From the NCBI GenBank assembly GCA_964442075.1, contig CAYTWH010000002.1:59565-123564 (forward strand): a stretch of DNA of 64,000 nt, given 5' to 3'. The notes beneath the pieces are model-generated. The model was not told where the DNA came from. It saw only the letters and a list, made by a program, of their open reading frames with translations, and did no database searches. The stretch's first letter is position 1. The number at the start of each line of letters is the position of its first letter. This document shows positions 8,470 through 59,130 of the stretch, in pieces. The position numbers were made by a program, and so were the translations under genes. The DNA is from an uncultured Bacteroidales bacterium. GTDB taxonomy: Bacteria > Bacteroidota > Bacteroidia > Bacteroidales > CAYTAU01.

Positions 8470-9930
8470 TTAAGACATTCTTTTGTCTATAACATTATTT
8501 TTTGAATCGACTAAAGTTATTTGAAGAGGCATTTTTCCTAAAGCATGAGTTGCACAACTTAAGCAAGGATCATATGCTCTAATAGCAACCTCACAAGCGT
8601 TCATCATAGGTTCAGTTATTTCTTTTTGTCCTGTCATCATTTTTTTAGCAACAAATTCCACAGATCTATTCATTGGTTCATTATTGTTTGTTGTTGAAAC
8701 AATTAAATTAGCCATTTCAATCTGATCTTTATCATTGATTCTATAATGATGGAATAAAGTACCACGTGGAGCTTCAATAATACCAACCCCTTCATTTCCT
8801 TTTGTTCCTTTAGTTACAAGATTATCGCCTTTCATAATGTCTGGATCATTAATAAGTTCTTTCATCATTTCAGCTGCATGTAATAATTCTATCAACCTTG
8901 CCCAATGCATATGCATACACATATTATTAGGTTTGCCATGAGTATAGGCTTTAAACTGCTCAAACTCTTTTTGTGCTAATGGCGAAGGAATAAAATCAAC
9001 AGTATTCATACGAGCAAGAGGTCCTACTCTATACCAACCTTTTTCTTTTCCAAGAGATTTTATATAAGGAAATTTCATGTAAGACCATGATTTTACTTCC
9101 TCTTCAATGTAATTATTATATTCCTGATTGCTAACGCCTTCAAATATTACATTACCATCAGAATCAACAGCTTTAAGGTCTCCATTATATAAGTCCATTG
9201 CACCGTCTTTTCTCACAATACTTAAGTGGTTTGATGGAAATTGAGCAAAATTATCGATAAAATCAGTATTTTTACCATGGAATCCTTTTAACAAATCAAC
9301 TGATGCTTGAGCCCATTCAATCATTTTATCTACATTTAAAGGATCTGCTCCTTTAAGAAATTCGTCTCTTTCTTCCAGACTTAAGCATTTATTAATTCCA
9401 CCAGGAATTGCACCGGTACCATGTATTTTTTTCCCTGCAGTAGCACGAATAATTTCTTGTCCAAATTTTCTCATCAATACTGCTTGAACAGCTAAATCAG
9501 TATATTCAGGAGTAATAACTAGTCCTATTACATTTCTGATAGCAGGATCAGCATCATAACCAAATAATAAATCAGGAGATGCTAAATGGAAAAAATGCAA
9601 AGCATGAGACTGAAATATTTGTCCATAATGCATTAATCTACGCATTTTATCTCCGGTAGGAGTTAATCCATCTCCTGTGCCTGCACCAACAATTACATCT
9701 AATGCTTTAGCTGCAGCTAAATGATGACTTACTGGACATATTCCACATAAACGTTGAACCAATACTGGAGCTTCCCAATAAGGACGACCTTGAACAAAAC
9801 GTTCAAATCCTCTAAATTCAACAATATGTAATCTGCTTTGTGTAACATTTCCGTCATCATCTAATTGAATTGTTACTTTTCCATGACCTTCGACCCTAGT
9901 TACAGGTTCTATCGTTATTTTTTGTGCCAT
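8470..9930 (-). CDS. hoxH: [NiFe]-hydrogenase large subunit, bidirectional NAD-coupled type (HoxH)
   Basis: 486 aa with RVEGHG, RLCGICPVSH (N-terminal Ni-Fe ligands) and DPCLSCATH (C-terminal ligands). A 24-aa extension (ALGKMPLQITLVDSKNNVIDKRMS) follows. Confidence 0.95.
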   Translation of the reverse strand: MAQKITIEPVTRVEGHGKVTIQLDDDGNVTQSRLHIVEFRGFERFVQGRPYWEAPVLVQRLCGICPVSHHLAAAKALDVIVGAGTGDGLTPTGDKMRRLMHYGQIFQSHALHFFHLASPDLLFGYDADPAIRNVIGLVITPEYTDLAVQAVLMRKFGQEIIRATAGKKIHGTGAIPGGINKCLSLEERDEFLKGADPLNVDKMIEWAQASVDLLKGFHGKNTDFIDNFAQFPSNHLSIVRKDGAMDLYNGDLKAVDSDGNVIFEGVSNQEYNNYIEEEVKSWSYMKFPYIKSLGKEKGWYRVGPLARMNTVDFIPSPLAQKEFEQFKAYTHGKPNNMCMHMHWARLIELLHAAEMMKELINDPDIMKGDNLVTKGTKGNEGVGIIEAPRGTLFHHYRINDKDQIEMANLIVSTTNNNEPMNRSVEFVAKKMMTGQKEITEPMMNACEVAIRAYDPCLSCATHALGKMPLQITLVDSKNNVIDKRMS

Positions 9931-9946
9931 TGTCTCTAGTTTTTAA

Positions 9947-10495
9947 TTAATCAAATTTAATAACTTCATAAGGTAAGTCCATTTCGTTACCTGTTAATAA
10001 TGCAACAAGTGCATTCCAAATAAGGTCTGCTGTAGGAGGACATCCCGGCAAATAATAATCTATTTTTACAATTTCATGACAAGGATAAACTCTATCAAGA
10101 AGCATTGGTAATTCATCATCATTAGGCATAATCTTTTCTGTATTTAATTGCACAGTTGGACCATTTAGATATGCTTCTTCCAAACATTCTTTAATAGGAA
10201 TTCCATTTCTTAATGCAGGTAATCCGCCCATTATAGCACATTCACCTAAAGAAATTAGAATTTTACAATTTTTTCTGAAGTCTTTAAGTACTTCTATGTT
10301 TTCGTGGTTACAACATCCTCCTTCAATAATACCAATATCACATTGTTTTGTGAATTTTTTGATATCATCAATAGGCGATTTATTAAATTCAACAAGTTCA
10401 ATAAGTTTTAATATTCTATCATCAATATCCAGAATAGACATGTGACAGCCAAAACATCCAGCTAGTGAAGTTGTTGCTACGATTGGTTTACTCAT
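9947..10495 (-). CDS. hoxY: [NiFe]-hydrogenase small subunit (HoxY)
   Basis: 182 aa, the short group-3 type. Contains LAGCFGCHMS, GGCCNHEN and YYLPGCPP, with no twin-arginine signal. Confidence 0.9.
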   Translation of the reverse strand: MSKPIVATTSLAGCFGCHMSILDIDDRILKLIELVEFNKSPIDDIKKFTKQCDIGIIEGGCCNHENIEVLKDFRKNCKILISLGECAIMGGLPALRNGIPIKECLEEAYLNGPTVQLNTEKIMPNDDELPMLLDRVYPCHEIVKIDYYLPGCPPTADLIWNALVALLTGNEMDLPYEVIKFD

Positions 10496-30680: not shown

Positions 30681-31310
30681 CTATAATTTTTTATCGGGAT
30701 AAAGAGCACCTCCTTTTGTAAGCCAGGATACACCAAATGCAATTAGAGCAACTGTTTCTGCCCAAAACACAAAATAAGGATGAAATTCAAATTTTTTATG
30801 TGCTACAATTGCAATAAGGCAAACAATTATAATGATACCACAAATTCTATAGACCAGATTTCTTTTCTTCTTTCGTGATGTTATTTTAAATTCTTTTTTG
30901 GTTTTAGTAAATAAGATCAATGAAAAACTAGCGAGAGTGAGAAAAAATATAGCAGCACATGTATAATGAATCAGACCTATTAAGTCAGTTTCTCCAACGC
31001 CCTCCGTTGTAGGAACCCAAGCTACTCCTATTGCAAAAAATCCGGCAATATTTCCCGCCCAGTCGTCCAATTTATTATAACCACAATAAAAAAACATAAA
31101 TAATGCAACAGCACAAAGAGCTCCAACAAACACATTGCGCATGCTTGTATGATAATAATGACTTATAGATGTTGGCATATCCTCTCCATTAAAAAGTATT
31201 AAAAGTCCAAACATTAATGTAAACGGCAACAATATACCTATCCATCCTACTGTTTTTCGTAAATCCAAATAAGAATAGGTAAGTCTTGAATACTTGGTTT
31301 TAAAATTCAT
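30681..31310 (-). CDS. Integral membrane protein (about 6 TM), unknown function
   Basis: 209 aa with several hydrophobic helices (WIGILLPFTLMFGLLILF, VGALCAVALFMFFYCGY, AAIFFLTLASFSLILF and others). Confidence 0.55.
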   Translation of the reverse strand: MNFKTKYSRLTYSYLDLRKTVGWIGILLPFTLMFGLLILFNGEDMPTSISHYYHTSMRNVFVGALCAVALFMFFYCGYNKLDDWAGNIAGFFAIGVAWVPTTEGVGETDLIGLIHYTCAAIFFLTLASFSLILFTKTKKEFKITSRKKKRNLVYRICGIIIIVCLIAIVAHKKFEFHPYFVFWAETVALIAFGVSWLTKGGALYPDKKL

Positions 31311-31491
31311 AATTACTAATTTTAATATATATTTATTTCTATTAAATTTATTACAAATTGTTTATAAAGTTTCCATTATGATATAAAGGTACTATTATTT
31401 ACATATTTTTATTATTTTTGTTATATTTTTATTATTTTTGTTAAAATGTTTATTTAATACTCTTCAATTATTTTATTTATACAATTTAATC

Positions 31492-32967
31492 ATGAATAAA
31501 TTATTCTATTTTATATCTATTATCTTTTTATTTTTAATAAACACAGGGCTAAATGCATCGGAAAAATTGCAGGTATCTTTTCATTATGCAGCTTTTAATT
31601 CTCCTAACAATGGTCCTTATATTGAAACATACATGACCGTTTTTGGACAATCTTCTACTTTTATAAAAAATGATAATAACAAATTTCAATCATCAATTGA
31701 AATTACTATGATCTTTAAACAAGAAAGTAAAGTAATTAATTTTACTAAATTCAATCTTTTAAGTCCCGAATTATCTGATACTACAGAAACAAAACCAAAT
31801 TTTATTGACCAACAAAGAATATCATTACCAAATGGGATTTACAATTTCGAATTAATAATTAAGGATAAAAATTCAGATGCTAAAGAATTTTCTTTTAACG
31901 ATATCATCACTATTAATTTTAACGACACCGAAATATGTTTTTCGGGAGTTCAATTTATTGAGAAATTTTCAGAAACAAAAACAGAGAATATATTAAGTAA
32001 AAACGGATACGACCTTGTTCCCTATGTTTCTAATTTCTTCCCTGACAATATGAGTGAATTAATTTTTTATACAGAAATATATAATATCAGTACAATATTA
32101 AAAGATGAAAAAGATATATTGGTGCAATATTTTATTGAAAATTTCAATAATGGAAAGACTTTAGATCAATATACTAAATTTAAAAAGCAAACGGCAAAAG
32201 GCTTAAATATTGTTTTTGGGCAACTTAATATTTCTGATCTGCCATCAGGCAACTATAATCTTAATATTGAAATAAAAAATAAAGAAAATGTGCTTTTAAA
32301 AAGTCAAAAAGTATTTTTTCAAAGAAGTAATCCCGAAAAGGATATAAATATTGAAGATATTTCCTCAATAAAAATTGAAGATGTTTTCACTAACAAATAT
32401 CAGAGCATTGATACATTAGCCGAATATATAAGATGTATTAGACCTATAGCCGATTTTGTGGAGAGACGATTTATTGATAATAACTCTAAATCGACAACAT
32501 TAAGCTTTATGCAACAATACTTTTATAGTTTCTGGGCAAAAAGAAACTCTGTAAATCCTGAAAAAGAATGGGAATATTATAAAAAACAAGTCAACCTTGT
32601 TAATAGTTTATATTCATCTCCAATTGAAAAAGGATATGAATCAGATAGAGGTTGGGTATTTTTACAATACGGTGCACCAAATAATGCTACTGAATTCAAA
32701 CATGAATCAAATACTTTTCCTTATGAAATATGGCACTATTATCGGTTAGGTGAAAACGAGACAACACAAACTAATATAAAATTTGTTTTTTATAATCCCG
32801 ATATTGCTGGGAATGATTATATCCTTTTACACTCAAATGCTCGTGGTGAAATTTTTGATAAAAACTGGGAAAAAAGACTTTATAATCCACATGATAATCA
32901 AGGCTACAAAGATAGAATAAATGATCCGTACAGGCAATCAAAAGAACTCGAAATATATAATGAATAA
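31492..32967 (+). CDS. GWxTD domain protein
   Basis: Start placed at MNKLFYFISIIFLFLINTG (signal peptide). C-terminal motif SDRGWVFLQYGAPN...PYEIWHY. Confidence 0.7.
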   Translation: MNKLFYFISIIFLFLINTGLNASEKLQVSFHYAAFNSPNNGPYIETYMTVFGQSSTFIKNDNNKFQSSIEITMIFKQESKVINFTKFNLLSPELSDTTETKPNFIDQQRISLPNGIYNFELIIKDKNSDAKEFSFNDIITINFNDTEICFSGVQFIEKFSETKTENILSKNGYDLVPYVSNFFPDNMSELIFYTEIYNISTILKDEKDILVQYFIENFNNGKTLDQYTKFKKQTAKGLNIVFGQLNISDLPSGNYNLNIEIKNKENVLLKSQKVFFQRSNPEKDINIEDISSIKIEDVFTNKYQSIDTLAEYIRCIRPIADFVERRFIDNNSKSTTLSFMQQYFYSFWAKRNSVNPEKEWEYYKKQVNLVNSLYSSPIEKGYESDRGWVFLQYGAPNNATEFKHESNTFPYEIWHYYRLGENETTQTNIKFVFYNPDIAGNDYILLHSNARGEIFDKNWEKRLYNPHDNQGYKDRINDPYRQSKELEIYNE

Positions 32968-53169: not shown

Positions 53170-55131
53170 ATGACAAAAATTGACCCCGTCCAAAATTACG
53201 AACATACCAAAAAAGAGATTGGGTATGTTCCTCGAAAACAAGCAACACAGAAAGATTATGACCATATTGGATTCATGTCAGGCCTTGAAGTTCACCAACA
53301 ACTTTTAACAAAACGAAAGCTTTTTTGCAGATGTCCTGCCGGAATTTTTCAAAGTGATGAAGGTTATAATGCCGAAGTAATACGCCATATGAGGCCAACA
53401 CTTAGTGAATTGGGAGAATATGACGGAACGGCATTAATGGAATTTAAAACCAGAAAAGAAATTATTTACAGACTGAATAATGAAACAGCATGTACTTATG
53501 AAGTAGATGATACTCCACCTTTTCCAATTGATAAGGTAGCACTTGAAATAGCCCTTAAAATTTCAATTCTTAGTAAATTAAATATTGTTGGAGAAGTTCA
53601 TATAACAAGAAAACAATATCTTGACGGCAGTATTCCAACAGGTTTTCAAAGAACAGCAATTTTGGGTGTTGAAGGTGAAATTAAATTAAAAAACAAAACC
53701 GTAAGACTTATTCAATTAAGTATTGAAGAAGATTCTTGTCGTGAAATATCCGACATAAAACATGTCAGAGTTTACAAAACAGACAGACTAGGAATGCCAT
53801 TAATCGAAACTGTTACTTATCCTGACATGGTAAATCCTGAAGAGGTAATGGAGGCATGTGATTATATCCGGTTTTTAAATAGGAGTACGGGAAAAGTCAG
53901 AACAGGAATTGGTGCAGGAAGACAAGATGTGAATGTAAGCTGTAAAGGTGGAAGTCGTGTTGAAATAAAAGGAGTTGCACACACAAAATGGATACCTGAA
54001 CTTACACATAACGAATGTTACAGACAATGGGCATTGCTTGCTGTAAGGAAAAAATTATTAAAAAGAATAAAAAATCCCGATAATTGGAAAATTGAACATG
54101 CAAATTTGGATTGGGATGCTTTTCAAATTACTTATGAGCCCTTAAAAATAGCTAAAGATAATGGGGAAAAACTGTATGCTGTAAATCTTCCAAATTTCAA
54201 AGGTATTCTTTCTCACTTTACACAGCCCGGAAAAATGTTTTCAAACGAAATTTCCGACAGATTAAAAGTAATTGCCTGTCTTGAAAAACCCAACATGCTT
54301 CATACAGAGCAATATGAGAAAATAATTAATAAAGCCGACCTGGAAATTATTAGTTCAATTGTTAATGCGGGCGAAAACGATGCACAAATTATTTTCTGGG
54401 GACCTGAAGAAGATATTAAAACGGCATTAGAAACTATTGAAGAAAGATGCCAAATGGCTTTTGAGGGAATTCCTGAAGAAACACGAAAATCATTTGAGAA
54501 CGGAACAACAATTTTTGAAAGAGTGCTTCCCGGAGCCGACAGAATGTATCCTGATACAGACAGCCCGCCTATTCCTCTTGAAAATGACTATATTGATAAA
54601 TTAGGAGAAAACCTTCCGGTTGACATAATTGACAGATACAAACAATTAAAAAACTGGGATATTCCTGAAGATACTTACAAATATATTTTAAGTAAAAATC
54701 TGGTGCCGCTTATTGAAAAAATCATCAATGATTTTGCTTACAATCCAAAATATATTGGAACTTTCATAGGACACAAACTAAAATATGTTGAAGGTCATTA
54801 TGTTTCTCCTGCAAAATTTGATTATGACCTTGTTTATGATCTATTCAAATTTGTTAAAGACAGTAAACTGGAAATTGAAATTGCAAAAGAAATGATCTCA
54901 GAATTATACGAACATCCACAAATGGATTTCGAATCAATTCTTGCAACTATTAAATATAAAAAGAAATCTAAAAAAGAAATTCTTGAACCTGTTGGCTTGC
55001 TTAAAAAGAAGTTTAAGAAAAACGGGGAAAGACAGACTCCTGATTCAATAAATGATTGGATTATGGGCGAGTTGCGCAAGCAAGCAATCGGGAATTGTAA
55101 TTTAACAGAACTTAAAAATTTAATATCTTAG
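53170..55131 (+). CDS. gatE: Glu-tRNA(Gln) amidotransferase subunit E-like (archaeal GatE type)
   Basis: 653 aa with GFMSGLEVHQQLLTKRKLFCRC, MRPTLSELGEYDGTALME, DGSIPTGFQRTAILG, DRLGMPLIETVTYPDM, GAGRQDVNVS, RVEIKGV. Its length and its pairing with a GatD-type gene argue for GatE rather than GatB. Confidence 0.8.
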   Translation: MTKIDPVQNYEHTKKEIGYVPRKQATQKDYDHIGFMSGLEVHQQLLTKRKLFCRCPAGIFQSDEGYNAEVIRHMRPTLSELGEYDGTALMEFKTRKEIIYRLNNETACTYEVDDTPPFPIDKVALEIALKISILSKLNIVGEVHITRKQYLDGSIPTGFQRTAILGVEGEIKLKNKTVRLIQLSIEEDSCREISDIKHVRVYKTDRLGMPLIETVTYPDMVNPEEVMEACDYIRFLNRSTGKVRTGIGAGRQDVNVSCKGGSRVEIKGVAHTKWIPELTHNECYRQWALLAVRKKLLKRIKNPDNWKIEHANLDWDAFQITYEPLKIAKDNGEKLYAVNLPNFKGILSHFTQPGKMFSNEISDRLKVIACLEKPNMLHTEQYEKIINKADLEIISSIVNAGENDAQIIFWGPEEDIKTALETIEERCQMAFEGIPEETRKSFENGTTIFERVLPGADRMYPDTDSPPIPLENDYIDKLGENLPVDIIDRYKQLKNWDIPEDTYKYILSKNLVPLIEKIINDFAYNPKYIGTFIGHKLKYVEGHYVSPAKFDYDLVYDLFKFVKDSKLEIEIAKEMISELYEHPQMDFESILATIKYKKKSKKEILEPVGLLKKKFKKNGERQTPDSINDWIMGELRKQAIGNCNLTELKNLIS

Positions 55132-55188
55132 ATATAATATCTAGAATATAAAATTGTAAATTGTAAATCGTAAATCTAAAATAGAAAA

Positions 55189-56574
55189 ATGGACAAAGAT
55201 ATTTTTCAAGGATATAAAGATGAAGCTCTTGAAATATTGAAAAAATATAATGCAAGAGTTTGGGGAAAAGTTGAAATAGAATCAACAAGAGGAAGATTTG
55301 ACGGCACTATTCTGCCGCGTGCCGAAAATGATGACGACCAGCATATTGTTCTTAAAATAATTACAGGCTACAATATTGGTGTAGATATCAAAACAATAAC
55401 TTCGATGGTAGAAGTTGATTACAAAAAAGCTAATTACCAGATACCTGAAAAAGAATTTCCATTTACAAAAGGATTGCCTGCCGTAAAACTTTTTGGAACA
55501 GGGGGAACCATTGCATCACGGCTCGATTACAGAACAGGTGCTGTTATTCCTGCTTTCTCACCAGGCGAACTTTATGGAGCAGTGCCAGAATTAGCAGACA
55601 TTTGCAACCTTGATACCGAAAAAGTTTTTGCTGTTTTTAGTGAGAATATGGGACCAATGCAATATATGTCGCTGGCAAAAGCAATAAAAAAAGAAATTGA
55701 AAACGGTATTGACGGAATAGTAATTGGTCATGGAACTGATACTTTACATCATTCAGGTGCAGCTTTAACATTTATGGTGCAAAATTCTCCGGTACCAATA
55801 GTTTTGGTAGGTTCACAACGTTCATCAGACAGACCAAGTTCCGATGCCGCTCTGAATCTTATGCACGCAATGCACACAGCAGGACATTCTGATATTGCAG
55901 AAGTTATGGTTTGCATGTTTGGACCTACTTCCGATGAGTACGGGCTTTTGCATAAAGGAACCAGAGTTAGAAAAATGCACTCATCATATCGTTCAACATT
56001 CAGAACAATTGGAGATATTCCATTAGCAATGGTTGATAGAAAAAAGATAACACCAATTCATAAAGAATATAAAAGAAGACGAAAAGATAAAAATGTTGAT
56101 ATTTATCCTTATTTCAGCGATAAAGTTACAATGTTATATTATTATCCAGGAATGAATCCAGACATACTGAATTCTATAATTGATAATGGTTACAAGGGAA
56201 TTATATGGGTTGGTACAGGATTAGGTCACGTTAATAAAGAATTGTATCCGGCAATTGAACGTGCTCACGCAAAAGGAATTCACATGTTTATGACCTTACA
56301 AACAATTTGGGGATATGTTCACATGTTTGTTTACGATACAGGGCGTGATATGATGGCAAGAGGAATTATCCCTGCCGGCAATATGTTGCCAGAAGTTGCG
56401 TACATTAAACTTGGTTGGGTACTTGGACAAACAGACGATGCCAAAAAAGTTAAGGAAATGATGCTTACGCCAATTAACGATGAAATAACCGAACGCGAAC
56501 CTTACAATGGATATTTAGTCTATCAAGGCGGTGTACCCGAAGTTGAAGACTTTATTAGAAATGTGCATAAGTAA
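55189..56574 (+). CDS. gatD: Glu-tRNA(Gln) amidotransferase subunit D-like (archaeal GatD type)
   Basis: 461 aa. GatD-specific N-domain (VWGKVEIESTRGRFDGTILPRAENDDDQHIVLKIITGYNIGVDI), then an asparaginase core (LFGTGGTIASRLDYRTGAV, VIGHGTDTLHHS). Confidence 0.85.
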   Translation: MDKDIFQGYKDEALEILKKYNARVWGKVEIESTRGRFDGTILPRAENDDDQHIVLKIITGYNIGVDIKTITSMVEVDYKKANYQIPEKEFPFTKGLPAVKLFGTGGTIASRLDYRTGAVIPAFSPGELYGAVPELADICNLDTEKVFAVFSENMGPMQYMSLAKAIKKEIENGIDGIVIGHGTDTLHHSGAALTFMVQNSPVPIVLVGSQRSSDRPSSDAALNLMHAMHTAGHSDIAEVMVCMFGPTSDEYGLLHKGTRVRKMHSSYRSTFRTIGDIPLAMVDRKKITPIHKEYKRRRKDKNVDIYPYFSDKVTMLYYYPGMNPDILNSIIDNGYKGIIWVGTGLGHVNKELYPAIERAHAKGIHMFMTLQTIWGYVHMFVYDTGRDMMARGIIPAGNMLPEVAYIKLGWVLGQTDDAKKVKEMMLTPINDEITEREPYNGYLVYQGGVPEVEDFIRNVHK

Positions 56575-56629
56575 AGAAGTCAAGTAGACCGAAGAATCTT
56601 TCACAATTTTATATATACACTTTCGTGAG

Positions 56630-57110
56630 ATAAGGCAACAAATGCCCCGCACAAGACAATCAGATACGTAAATAAGGCAATGATGAACCATTATAAGCAA
56701 ATGATGAGCCCTCACGGGCAAATTATGGAACCCAACGGACAAATGATGGAAGCAAACGGGCAAATGAATTCCAATTATAAGGCAATGAAGGGCTCCGACA
56801 AGGCACTAAAGGACGTAATCACACTGCTTCGGATGCCTAATACCTCAACCCTAGTGCCCGGTGTCTCGTTTCGGGAGCCTAATGTCTCAACGAGGGTCGT
56901 TAATAACTCAATAGTATTGCATAATAGCTAAATAATCTTACACGGTGGCTCATTAAACTTACACGATGCCCAATCAATCTTGCACGGTGCCCAATTAAAA
57001 TTGTACAATAGATAAACAATAAGGCAATATAACTTAATAAATTGGCGTTATAAGTAAATAAGTGGCATAATAACATGATTTTTGTCGCATAATATATTAC
57101 CCTTGTAGAA
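56630..57110. repeat. Array of about 23 degenerate tandem units with a strict ~21-nt phase
   Basis: Core motifs recur every 20-22 nt. First set: 56634, 56655, 56676, 56696, 56717, 56738, 56759, 56781, 56802 (GGCAA/GACAA/GGCAC). Second set: 56844, 56865, 56886, 56907 (CTCAA/TCTCG). Third set: 56937, 56958, 56979, 57000 (CTTACACGG-like). Fourth set: 57023, 57044, 57064, 57085 (GGCAA/GGCGT/GGCAT/TCGCA). Confidence 0.75.
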
Positions 57111-57129
57111 ACATTAAATATTAAAAACT

Positions 57130-57633
57130 ATGGATAGACCAGAAGAAACAAAGAAAACGGAAAAGATATCAATGAATGACTTAAAAACATTTCTTGATAA
57201 GAAGTTTGCACCAGACCCATTGGCAATAAAACCCAATAAAATGTCAAATAATGAAATGGAAAATTTCTTTAAAACGGAAATAATCCCGGTATATAAAAAA
57301 CTTATGAAACAACTCTCTGCCTATAAATTCGAAAGTGTAAAAATTGATGTATACAGGCGGGTTGCAACACTAAGAATTGCCGATAAACTTTCACTCTTTC
57401 ATTTCAAAGTGGATATTGATAATAGCTCCCGACAATTCAATATTTTATATGACGTAAGTTATCGCATTGCAAAAAAGAAAAAACTTAAACAAATACTAAA
57501 AAGTGATAATGTTAGAATATCATTTCGCGATATAGACACAATAAACGAAGACATGATAATATCTCATTTCTTAAAATGGTATATGAATAAAGACGAAGAG
57601 ATATTAAATGATAAAGAGAGAAATGTAGAATAA
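57130..57633 (+). CDS. Hypothetical protein (167 aa)
   Basis: A clean ORF starting 20 nt after the phased array and followed by a terminator-like hairpin. Lys/Glu-rich, no recognisable motif. Confidence 0.5.
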   Translation: MDRPEETKKTEKISMNDLKTFLDKKFAPDPLAIKPNKMSNNEMENFFKTEIIPVYKKLMKQLSAYKFESVKIDVYRRVATLRIADKLSLFHFKVDIDNSSRQFNILYDVSYRIAKKKKLKQILKSDNVRISFRDIDTINEDMIISHFLKWYMNKDEEILNDKERNVE

Positions 57634-57678
57634 AGTTAAAAATATTTTGTAGTTTTTGCGTGAAAAAAATTTAAAATT

Positions 57679-57705
57679 AAAAGGGGAGTTTTCTCCTTTT
57701 TTTTA
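57679..57705 (+). terminator. Candidate rho-independent terminator
   Basis: AAAAGGGGAG TTTT CTCCTTTTTTTT: GGAG/CTCC core with G-T and A-T extensions and a T-run. Confidence 0.5.
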
Positions 57706-57739
57706 TCTTTGATGAATTATAATAGAAATTGTGTTGTTA

Positions 57740-58551
57740 ATGAATATTGAGCAACTAATAAATGAATTTAAAAATTGTGATTTATCAGAAATCGCACACC
57801 ACAAAATAATTAGAACAATTATAAATAATAATATTCAAATTCCAATAATTGTAGCAACTGTAAAAGAAGGAACAATTATTGAACGAGGTAGAATATCTGA
57901 TGAAGGAAAAATATATAATTCTGAATTTAAGATAAGTTATAATACCGCAATAGGTAAGATACTTAAATATGGACGTGCAAATAAACCCTTTCAATCTATG
58001 TTTTATGGTGCAATGATTTCAAAAAAAATTACACCTGTGCGAACACTATTTGCAGAATTAGTAGAACAATTTCGAAAAATACCAAACAATGACTTCACCA
58101 CAACTATGACAGTTGGACGTTGGATTGTAACTAAAGAATTTGAAATTGCAGATGTATGCTTTAGTAAAATCATCCTAGTACAAATAAAAACACGAAAGAA
58201 TACAAATTATTTGAGGAGTTTCCAGAGCAAGCTCGAAATTTATTATTATTTTTTACTGATGTATTCTCGAAAAAAAATATTGTCAATCACTTTGATTATA
58301 AAGTTAGTTCTGTATACACTGACCTTGTATTAAATGAAAAGTTGGAGGGTATTTACTATCCAAGTGTTCGAACTGAATACAAGGGTAAAAATATTGCCTT
58401 AACACCCTTTGCTGTAGAAAAATATTTAAAGTTAGAAAAAGTTGCTGTATTTAAGTATACGGTAAAAAACGGTCAACCAATGGCAAAACAAACTCATTAT
58501 TCAGATTCTTTTGGAAATTTTAACTCACAATTTAATTGGAAAGAGTATTAA
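57740..58551 (+). pseudogene. RES-domain protein gene interrupted by a frameshift
   Basis: Track ORFs 57731..58333 and 58342..58551 are one gene. The first carries YGRANKPFQSMFYGA (Arg) and LFAELVEQ (Glu). The frame of the second is open from 58168 and carries EGIYYPSVRTEYKGKNIAL (Ser). The frames differ by one nt, with the switch between about 58165 and 58195 (A-runs). Confidence 0.65.
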
Positions 58552-58599
58552 TAAATGATGACAGGAGTTTATAAAAAAAGAACAAACAATGTTTAAAAA

Positions 58600-59130
58600 A
58601 TGATAAAAGAAAAAGCAGATTTTCATAGTATTTTTTTAAAAGAAGGAGATATATTATATACGAATATTTATTCATTAGACAAAGACAAATTTAATAATTG
58701 GGTTGTAAATAATTTTGAAAAAGTAAAAACAATAGCCTCTTATGAAGAAGTTATACCAACCAAAGAAACAATGAACAAAATAATTAAAAAAGGATACGAC
58801 CATAGATCATCTCAATGTCATTATTCCTCAAAAGCTGTGAGTTTAATAGATGAATCTTTTGAATATTGGACAGGATTTGTACACCAACAAGACTTTTTAT
58901 TTAATATCATTACACATAGTTTTAATATATTAGATGGAATACTGGTTGATTTCTCAAAAATTAATGAGAAGTGTGAAATTATTGATAAAGGTAAAGAAGG
59001 TTTTCCTCGTACATATTATGGTATAAAAATTCCAACAGGATTTATAAGAAAATTTGAATATGAAACCTTAAATAATCATTCAATGAAACCTCATCTATTT
59101 GAATGGTACAAAGAAATGAAATCCCACTAA
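58600..59130 (+). CDS. Hypothetical protein with a possible Cys-His-Asp (papain/transglutaminase-like) arrangement
   Basis: 176 aa. SSQCHYSSKAVSLIDE...YWTGFVH...IITHSFNILDGILVDFS resembles a minimal Cys...His...Asp core. This is weak. Confidence 0.45.
   Translation: MIKEKADFHSIFLKEGDILYTNIYSLDKDKFNNWVVNNFEKVKTIASYEEVIPTKETMNKIIKKGYDHRSSQCHYSSKAVSLIDESFEYWTGFVHQQDFLFNIITHSFNILDGILVDFSKINEKCEIIDKGKEGFPRTYYGIKIPTGFIRKFEYETLNNHSMKPHLFEWYKEMKSH

Follow-up and report, generated by a model that had tools for sequence, protein, structure and literature searches.

A strictly phased tandem array of 21-nt units lies directly upstream of a small orphan gene in a 64,000-nucleotide stretch of DNA from an uncultured Bacteroidales bacterium (contig CAYTWH010000002.1; the whole stretch is called the window), and it is probably an undescribed regulatory DNA element rather than a gene or a known RNA system. 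The array occupies positions 56609-57129 with 24-25 contiguous units, running from the gatD side to the ATG (57130) of an open reading frame (ORF) of 167 amino acids (aa), here ORF167. Among homologous loci the period is conserved while the unit sequences turn over, the array stays linked to its gene, and its A/T content is phased at 10.5 bp; signals of coding and of RNA structure are absent. A more specific reading, which we favour tentatively, is that the array is a cis-acting, helically phased DNA element that binds protein or shapes the DNA and thereby controls the ORF167 promoter. In the following, W stands for the window lineage, L with three digits for a fetched homologous locus, and p200 for a second orphan family whose members carry such arrays.

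Lag-21 identity over 56630-57110 was 0.537 by autocorrelation, compared to 0.268 ± 0.02 in 500 dinucleotide-preserving shuffles (z=13.1), which bears out an original prediction, made from the sequence, of a 21-nt periodicity above a shuffled background. Lags 42 and 63 were also elevated (z=9.2 and 7.2), and lags 20 and 22 were at background. With a leave-one-out position weight matrix (PWM), 21 of 25 units stood at offset 0 with zero net slip across 500 bp, so the period is exactly 21 without insertions or deletions (indels), despite adjacent units being about 54% identical. The original estimate of about 23 units in a 20-22-nt phase was thus right as to phasing; the period is exactly 21, and the array begins one unit earlier, at 56609, giving 24-25 units up to the ATG. 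Its onset lies 35 nt past the stop codon of gatD, and both gatD (55189-56574) and ORF167 are placed as previously described. TRF picks up just two short sub-arrays (56697-56767 and 56934-56995), and the period-21 region is unique within the window. The units are contiguous and have no spacers, in agreement with the earlier rejection of CRISPR. They belong to four or five sub-families arranged in successive blocks, as follows.

56609 to 57129, unstranded: whole phased array (lag-21 z=13, PWM register, dominant 10.5-bp Fourier component with z=13).
56617 to 56628, plus strand: distal boundary motif ACACTTTCGTGA, a TCAC-N4-GTGA inverted repeat.
56630 to 56818, unstranded: block A/B, 9 units of the form ATAAGGCAATGATGAACCATT or ACGGGCAAATGATGGAACCCA.
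56819 to 56923, unstranded: block C, 5 units with a 42-bp super-period, …GCCTAATACCTCAAC… / …GCCTAATGTCTCAAC…
56924 to 57007, unstranded: block D, 4 units of the form AATCTTACACGGTGCCCAATC.
57008 to 57129, plus strand: A/T-rich degenerate tail units, in phase, with the cross-lineage block …TTTTTGTCG…TATTA…AAATATTAAAAACTATG.
57130 to 57633, plus strand: ORF167, an orphan protein of 167 aa and the conserved partner of the array.

Block A/B is the richest in G+C within the array (about 0.42 compared to about 0.33 in the flanks), and the main harmonic of its A+T profile is k=2, i.e. 10.5 bp. In the closest relative, L016, A-like and C-like units are interleaved as a 42-bp repeat. Block D is described by TRF (56934-56995) as period 21 with 3.0 copies and 78% matches. 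The distal motif ACACTTTCGTGA has one exact match across the window, at the outer edge of the array. The array is identical in all 8 contigs of the window lineage, which come from 8 samples, over the covered stretches of 56501-57200; 4 of the 8 span the full 700 bases. Three palindromes seen by eye in the arrays (TCAC-N4-GTGA, ATTGG-N2-CCAAT and CACAG-N5-CTGTG) were discarded, since their 4-5-bp arms are not significant and show no compensatory upkeep. A 15-nt inverted copy (87%) of the distal-motif region 56611-56625, CGAAAGTGT, lies inside ORF167 at 57330-57344; it was not found in other lineages and is probably due to chance.

The pairing of array and gene is conserved far beyond the window. 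All reachable loci were fetched. Every ORF167 homologue with a strong profile match and sufficient upstream sequence has a period-21 array directly 5' of it, in seven lineages (W, L010/L011/L015, L012/L013, L016, L018, L019 and L023/L024), the most remote array-bearing member being P0017 in L023 (profile E=1e-30). These loci sit at unrelated chromosomal sites and have only the ORF and the array in common, their flanking genes being unrelated. Several of the relatives' arrays are far cleaner than that of the window, with lag-21 identities of 0.90-0.95. Two more remote homologues, in L022 (E=4e-9) and L025 (E=1e-4), have no array and are placed after a protein gene. Both are found in mobile-element-like contexts (L025:9098-10594 and L022:1-1095). 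The L025 homologue overlaps a 300-aa Cys-rich orphan gene at the stop codon of the latter, with ParA-like and TacA/TacT genes close by, and that of L022 comes right after a gene with a TraG/VirD4-like C-terminus, a likeness seen by eye only.

The period is the conserved property, not the sequence. It is exactly 21 in all arrays found, in both the ORF167 and p200 families, and within the 225 kb of fetched DNA all tandem repeats scoring at least 70 have a period of 21 or 42. Beyond close relatives, unit sequences are similar between lineages at chance level only. The best alignment of L013 and L019 units requires two insertions and two deletions that restore the length of 21 (17 matches gapped compared to 13 ungapped). 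Within the clade of L010-L015 and L019 the order of sub-families is fixed: nnnnnCACTTTCGTGATAnn comes first (3-4 copies), followed by three bridge units, CTTGAGTGGAGTCATGCAGCC (2-4 copies), the main units (9-10) and lastly an A-rich tail. The copy numbers of sub-families vary among near-identical loci. In L013 and L010, whose ORFs are 95% identical, the copies of the main unit have all changed alike, which indicates concerted evolution. The unique distal part of the array is 82% identical between L013 and L019 with zero gaps, the ORF 76%. A motif, CACTTTCGTRATA, occurs 1-4 times at the distal edge in L010, L011, L012, L013, L015 and L019, with copies 21 bp apart, and ACACTTTCGTGA is the sole array sequence common to the window and the L010-L015/L019 lineages. 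In the clade of L012, L013, L019 and L010, the distal motif and the ATG are separated by lengths that differ in multiples of 21 only; derived from the locus sequences, this spacing is 15 mod 21 once a 106-nt insert is removed. The final ~60 nt before the ATG can be aligned in nine lineages.

The 106-nt insert follows the promoter-like block and precedes the ATG of the ORF167 homologue in L010 (~859-965), L011 (~9875-9985) and L015 (~9880-9985), and is absent in L012, L013, L019 and the window. It terminates in a terminator-like hairpin, TCCCTTTTGGGGAGG…GGAGGGG followed by CTTTTT, whose two alternative pairings suggest a possible attenuator.

A functionless minisatellite, in which a slippage-prone 21-bp repeat arose once and persists by inheritance of its unit length, would account for some of this pattern. 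The copies of the first two unit families differ between L012 and L013 and between L010 and L011, array edges are more degenerate than centres as under neutral satellite dynamics, and the concerted change of main units is what such a repeat would produce. We nevertheless consider this explanation improbable. The array has been kept in seven ORF167 lineages down to L023 and in all three p200 lineages examined, and the period has not drifted despite complete sequence turnover and apparently compensated indels. Old degenerate arrays that are no longer able to slip (W and L018) are still without indels, and that of W is the same in all 8 samples over the stretches covered. The arrays also have a G+C content of about 0.42-0.57 in genomes of about 0.33, and their distal part is as conserved as the ORF.

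The protein encoded by ORF167 is basic (isoelectric point, pI, of 9.4), as are most array-linked members of its family. Its predicted fold is alpha-alpha-beta6(antiparallel)-alpha-alpha (AlphaFold2 model, pLDDT 84.7). The protein had no match in Pfam, PADLOC, PHROG or NCBIfam, and its model had no structural match with E<1e-3 by Foldseek in PDB and BFVD, the best being weak frataxin-, Atg10- and p32-like alpha/beta sandwiches with a TM score of about 0.3. Its family is tiny, with 8 clusters from a word-seeded search and 18 among 1.84 billion representatives.

An unrelated 200-aa orphan ORF, p200, also has a period-21 array upstream, in three of three lineages examined (L015, L026 and L027):

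L015:853-1050, minus strand relative to the locus: array upstream of p200 (L015b).
L026:4707-4937: array upstream of p200.
L027:5-130: array upstream of p200.

These arrays lie 63-84 nt 5' of the p200 ATG, and their units are lineage-specific, GAACTCCCACAGGTCGTCTGT in 11 copies in L026 and GTGGTCGGTCACGAGTCATCT in L027; the palindrome ATTGG-N2-CCAAT occurs in those of L015b. Distal to their arrays, L015 and L026 share a conserved block, CCACAAACCCYTGC…CGTA. The p200 family also comprises 18 clusters. Homology to ORF167 was considered and rejected by profile comparison (hhalign). Members are acidic (pI 5-6.4) and are modelled as a long helical hairpin with an FN3 domain, the latter being the sole part matched by Foldseek. 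A p200 paralogue (30% identical) is present in the genome of the window itself (L001:18076-18699), about 7.5 kb 3' of ORF167 and just outside the end of the window; the 443-nt intergenic region ahead of it has no 21-nt periodicity and no array. Genes of the ORF167 and p200 families lie less than 10 kb apart in 2 of 4 loci (8-10 kb of flank on each side).

The geometry of the array points to DNA. The strongest Fourier component in the window array is 10.5 bp rather than 21 (z=13.2 over all bases and 13.1 for A+T). The WW-dinucleotide periodogram likewise peaks at 10.5, with a power of 5.7 compared to a maximum of 3.69 in 480 background windows from the same 64 kb. Within the 147 nt nearest the promoter, WW phasing at 10.5 bp is evident in W, L013, L014, L016, L018, L020 and L023 (z from 2.3 to 7.2), and in each of the five tails examined the strongest A+T harmonic is 10.5 bp. 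Helically phased A/T tracts are a classical signature of bent or wrapped double-stranded DNA and have no RNA counterpart. No base-composition skew relative to gene orientation is common to the arrays, as judged from their unit consensus sequences. That two unrelated proteins, one basic and one acidic, have the same kind of array is more readily understood from DNA geometry than from an RNA-protein complex common to both. Between L013 and L019, moreover, conservation of the noncoding distal array equals or exceeds that of the coding sequence.

A promoter-like block, cTTG-N20-TAtaTTTAc, precedes the ATG and can be aligned across nine lineages. In the window it consists of a -7-like element, TACCCTTG, at 57098-57105 and a weak -33-like ATG/TTG 20 nt upstream, matched by eye to the Bacteroidetes consensus TTG-N19-21-TAnnTTTG. 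The gap from the upstream gene to the first unit is 17-53 nt in L013, W and L011; the first unit is itself the left boundary of the module, so that a dedicated promoter would not fit ahead of the array.

On this basis we infer protein binding, candidate binders and an effect on transcription. About 24 degenerate sites, each two helical turns long, would all present the same face of the helix. The array, with its A/T-phased and probably curved proximal part, would form the upstream control region of the ORF167 promoter, where cooperative same-face binding or wrapping by a protein most likely sets the level of ORF167 transcription. A candidate for this protein is the ORF167 product, which is basic and linked to the array and may thus bind its own arrays; another is a lineage-specific host regulator of head-to-tail direct repeats. 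The acidity of p200 speaks for a host factor or for an effect of DNA structure alone. Slippage would alter the length of the array in 21-bp steps only, so that the register between distal motif and promoter would be kept.

Several findings weigh against this reading. ORF167 has no recognisable DNA-binding fold, and p200 is acidic. The promoter 3' of the array rests on weak consensus matches, and a scan of the window found no high-scoring site. In L026 a perfect TTTG-N21-TAccTTTG lies about 150 nt 5' of the p200 array, which may therefore be transcribed as a leader. A terminator-like hairpin stands between array and ORF in L010, L011 and L015, as in type III toxin-antitoxin (TA) systems. The main A+T harmonic of the clean main units is not 10.5 bp, this being confined to the tails, block A and L015b, and more than 20 sites far exceeds known operator arrays.

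A rival reading is an RNA-level array, transcribed with or ahead of ORF167, whose 21-nt units would be the repeated RNA partner of the protein, either as a type III-like antitoxin cut by it or as an unstructured leader or sponge that binds it and controls its translation. We regard this as unlikely, yet as a serious competitor. In addition to the L026 promoter motif and the hairpin described above, it is favoured by the layout itself, a same-strand array directly 5' of a 167-190-aa protein in a self-contained two-part module at unrelated loci, and by the mostly basic character of the array-linked proteins. Some contexts are accessory or defence-like (an EcoRI-type system in L013, a PglX-like type IIG enzyme in L011 and a low-GC orphan island in the window), and the distant array-less homologues follow a protein gene, with an overlap in L025, which recalls toxins that swap antitoxin type. 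No terminator-like site was found in 56400-57130, so that read-through transcription from gatD into the array is possible.

The RNA itself gave no supporting signal. A covariance scan of 55000-59000 against Rfam 15 returned three chance-level matches (E≥2.8, far under gathering scores), all outside the array. The predicted fold of the window array was no more stable than that of shuffles (z=+0.7 and +0.15 on the two strands), and the clean L013 array was less stable than every one of 100 shuffles on either strand (z=+4.9 and +4.0). A change of GTGA to GTAA disrupts the TCAC/GTGA stem of the distal motif, and no compensating change accompanies it. A scan for Bacteroidetes-type promoters, a weak test as it relies on a consensus, found no consistent site upstream of the ORF167 arrays. 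Phasing of A/T at 10.5 bp is foreign to RNA, and p200, being acidic and containing FN3, is unlikely to be an RNase or RNA binder. An antisense role was rejected, as the units share chance-level 8-12-mers only with the ORF and flanks; one 10-mer inverted copy of the distal motif inside the window ORF167 is not conserved in other lineages.

Type III TA systems (ToxIN, CptIN and TenpIN) resemble the module in having a same-strand tandem array directly 5' of a protein of about 170 aa, here in seven lineages, and in moving as a two-part pair that is often near defence genes. In such systems a promoter precedes the repeats, and the antitoxin RNA is cut into units that form pseudoknots and inhibit the toxin, an endoribonuclease. 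By published criteria (Blower 2012, PMC3401426), their units are 31-62 nt long in about 1.9-5.6 near-identical copies (Table 2 of that paper), with a short palindromic terminator between repeats and toxin and a ToxN, CptN or TenpN toxin. The units studied here differ in being 21 nt long, in about 24 heterogeneous copies with about 54% identity between neighbours. The window, L012, L013 and L019 have no terminator before the gene, the hairpin being confined to L010, L011 and L015, and neither a promoter 5' of the ORF167 arrays nor a pseudoknot or other fold signal was found. ORF167 has no ToxN/AbiQ match in Pfam and none in PADLOC, no ToxN-family chain appears in its top 50 PDB matches, and the second array-bearing family is an acidic FN3 protein. 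The earlier suggestion of a type III-like layout thus holds for the conserved, self-contained pairing and fails for unit length, copy number, the terminator in the window and the toxin fold.

A further possibility, rather doubtful in our view, is a novel type of two-component module in Bacteroidales, in which the long array with its fixed 21-nt register is the specific partner of ORF167 and, independently, of p200. Such a module might serve in abortive infection or addiction, or might assemble itself into a nucleoprotein filament, where the protein lattice could dictate the period of the array and the sequence could co-evolve freely.

Among known DNA elements, the array resembles phased binding-site arrays such as iterons and operators in kind, and is a member of no tested family. 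Iteron arrays (R6K, P1 incC/incA and pPS10) consist of direct repeats of about 19-22 bp at two turns with an adjoining A/T-rich stretch. They share with the array this repeat spacing (the iteron range being about 17-22 bp, here exactly 21), the A/T-rich stretch, the gene of the presumed binder and concerted evolution. They differ in that the array is chromosomal, has at least 20 units with several sub-families in fixed order, and has neither a Rep-like winged-helix protein nor DnaA boxes. ParR and omega centromeres (R1 parC, the 20-bp repeats of pSK41 and the heptads of pSM19035) are short direct repeats that are coated cooperatively and double as operators. The contiguous short repeats are similar here; the partner ATPase and the ribbon-helix-helix fold are missing, and the module is chromosomal and monocistronic.

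It is very improbable that the array is a replication or partition element, with units that are iterons from the origin of an integrated replicon or that make up a centromere-like array, even though two-turn direct repeats, an A/T-rich stretch and a small basic protein recall iteron-rep and parC-ParR layouts. The loci are chromosomal, lying near housekeeping genes on contigs of 110-250 kb, and their context is often accessory. No Rep, ParA or ParM gene and no ParR-type partner was found; ORF167 had no Rep match in Pfam, and its alpha-beta6-alpha fold matched neither winged-helix nor ribbon-helix-helix proteins. The DnaA box TTATCCACA, allowing at most one mismatch, is absent from 56609-57129 and its flanks, and its total in the window is below chance expectation. 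Searches of 72,556 plasmids (PLSDB) and 50,697 phages (INPHARED) by tblastn, together with IMG/VR scans, found no relatives of either family, and the main array unit had no match in the IMG/VR scan. Among the three options first proposed, a two-turn-phased protein-binding array is the best supported, without the iteron or centromere labels.

LytTR operators (AgrA and ComE) have 9-bp repeats with a 12-bp spacer and hence a 21-bp period, which is a lead, not a test. These and the pho-box operators of OmpR/PhoB contain 2-4 sites with a 21-22-bp period and are bound head to tail by response regulators. As in the array, the direct repeats abut a core promoter on one helical face, and several units have ACAG(A/G)T-like cores that recall the LytTR consensus. 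The array differs in having about 24 sites, no such regulator encoded nearby and a unit sequence that is wholly different between lineages. The 7-bp variable-number repeats associated with the hmw promoters of Haemophilus influenzae are likewise intergenic and 5' of a gene, vary in copy number among close strains as the arrays do, and could tune expression; the unit here, at two helical turns, is far longer, the old degenerate arrays have stayed stable, and the period is kept across deep divergence.

Unusual features of the arrays are the presence of more than 20 units, a period conserved under free sequence turnover, a fixed order of sub-families, and recurrence before two unrelated orphan families in a narrow group of Bacteroidales. 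The literature searched, on type III TA families, 21-bp repeats, Bacteroidetes intergenic repeats and Bacteroides iterons, does not describe such an element, which together with the Rfam result sustains the initial impression that no element of this shape had been described.

The signal also proved to lie at the level of nucleic acid rather than protein, as had been suspected. A frame read as heptads in the original prediction is indeed present. It is in phase with the ORF167 ATG, is open for 100 codons, ends at 56931 and includes the quoted heptads, and it is called as an 82-aa gene on the source contig. A protein-coding or recently decayed gene, with the units as 7-codon repeats (NGQMMEA-type) of a small protein upstream of ORF167, would also agree with 21 being divisible by 3. 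In L016, L018 and L019 the longest frame has this same relative position, and in L015 a 78-aa ORF with NGEIIGS heptads stops 19 nt before p200. This explanation is very unlikely, however, as the phase extends about 200 nt beyond the stop and 7 stops interrupt the frame over 56609-57129. In W and L018 neither strand has a frame that crosses the whole array, and on the plus strand of L023 no frame exceeds 45 codons. The homologous arrays of L013 and L019 are open in different plus frames, that of L013 having a TAG in L019, and in the minus frame common to both, 7 of 7 differences in the bridge region are non-synonymous (by eye from the alignment). The opposite strand had also been described as open; partial runs exist, the longest being 75, 65 and 50 codons, each in a different frame, with no single open frame.

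Unit variation in the window is even over codon positions (0.95, 1.00 and 1.12), with no significant power at period 3 (z=1.1). In clean arrays several frames are open together, and L015b yields four plausible 'repeat proteins', as any stop-free unit gives long ORFs in multiple frames. The likeness of heptad peptides across arrays (NGQMMEA, NGEIIGS and SDALMQS) was rejected, as it comes from similarity at 12-14 of 21 nt, which is chance level after 21 rotations. Comparison of orthologous loci, which had been suggested as a means to distinguish frame from phase, found the period of 21 conserved in every array and no frame conserved among them. Judged by its sequence, the array is not a coding sequence, and the proposed relic of a heptad-repeat gene is not borne out.

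If these interpretations are correct, an intergenic period-21 array of more than 10 units directly 5' of a small orphan gene is a searchable signature that would point to an as yet uncharacterised module, regulatory or defence-type, in Bacteroidales. Bacteria would then offer a case in which array geometry, not sequence, is conserved over deep divergence, and a natural system for cooperative face-of-helix recognition and concerted evolution of binding-site arrays. The arrays provide a first handle on two protein families without any annotation, and a caution for gene callers, in that 'heptad-repeat proteins' predicted in them are probably artefacts.

Downstream of ORF167 and in related loci, the following features were identified.

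57679 to 57702, plus strand: intrinsic-terminator-like hairpin, AAAAGGGGAG-TTTT-CTCCTTTTTT plus a T run, after ORF167.
L013:10598-11548, also in L012, L017:665-1285, L019:1117-1182 and L020:777-974: gene of ~303-316 aa.

The hairpin, terminator-like by sequence, closes the ORF167 transcription unit. The ~303-316-aa gene is conserved in one clade, where it follows the ORF167 homologue; its product has one predicted membrane helix and a C-terminal CarboxypepD_reg-like beta-sandwich. In L010, L011 and L015 this gene is deleted and a promoter-like remnant is kept. Two homologues have restriction enzymes 0.1-1.4 kb downstream. In L013 a complete EcoRI-type restriction-modification pair is found 3' of the homologue (L013:11914-13761), and in L011 a 951-aa PglX-like type IIG methyltransferase-endonuclease (L011:10698-13553).

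In the window, a low-GC island of orphan ORFs spans 57.2-59.3 kb, including orphan ORFs at 57740-58551 and 58600-59130 (G+C 0.25-0.29) 3' of ORF167. Scans of the ORF167 neighbours against Pfam, PADLOC, PHROGs and NCBIfam gave nothing useful, and a 176-aa ORF in the island had no match. Two other island ORFs, of 197 aa and 69 aa, lie 8 nt apart, the smaller having a faint match to a RES domain (E=0.24), and the pair may be a split toxin-like gene.

Upstream of the array, 53170-56574 encodes gatE (653 aa) and gatD (461 aa, with GatD_N and asparaginase domains), an archaeal-type GatDE amidotransferase pair, with Por_Secre_tail proteins of the type IX secretion system (T9SS) nearby. GatDE is in an unusual phyletic placement in Bacteroidales and may have been transferred from archaea. 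At 55116-55182, the end of gatE and the gatE-gatD spacer are covered by a degenerate tandem repeat of 7/14 nt (AAATCGT/AAATTGT), in which the 14-mer is present about 4.8 times. Elsewhere in the window, 31250-31540 has weak self-similarity at several lags (11, 14, 20 and 56, just above 0.5) and includes a 9-nt A/T repeat at 31393-31443; this region is probably low-complexity A/T-rich sequence.

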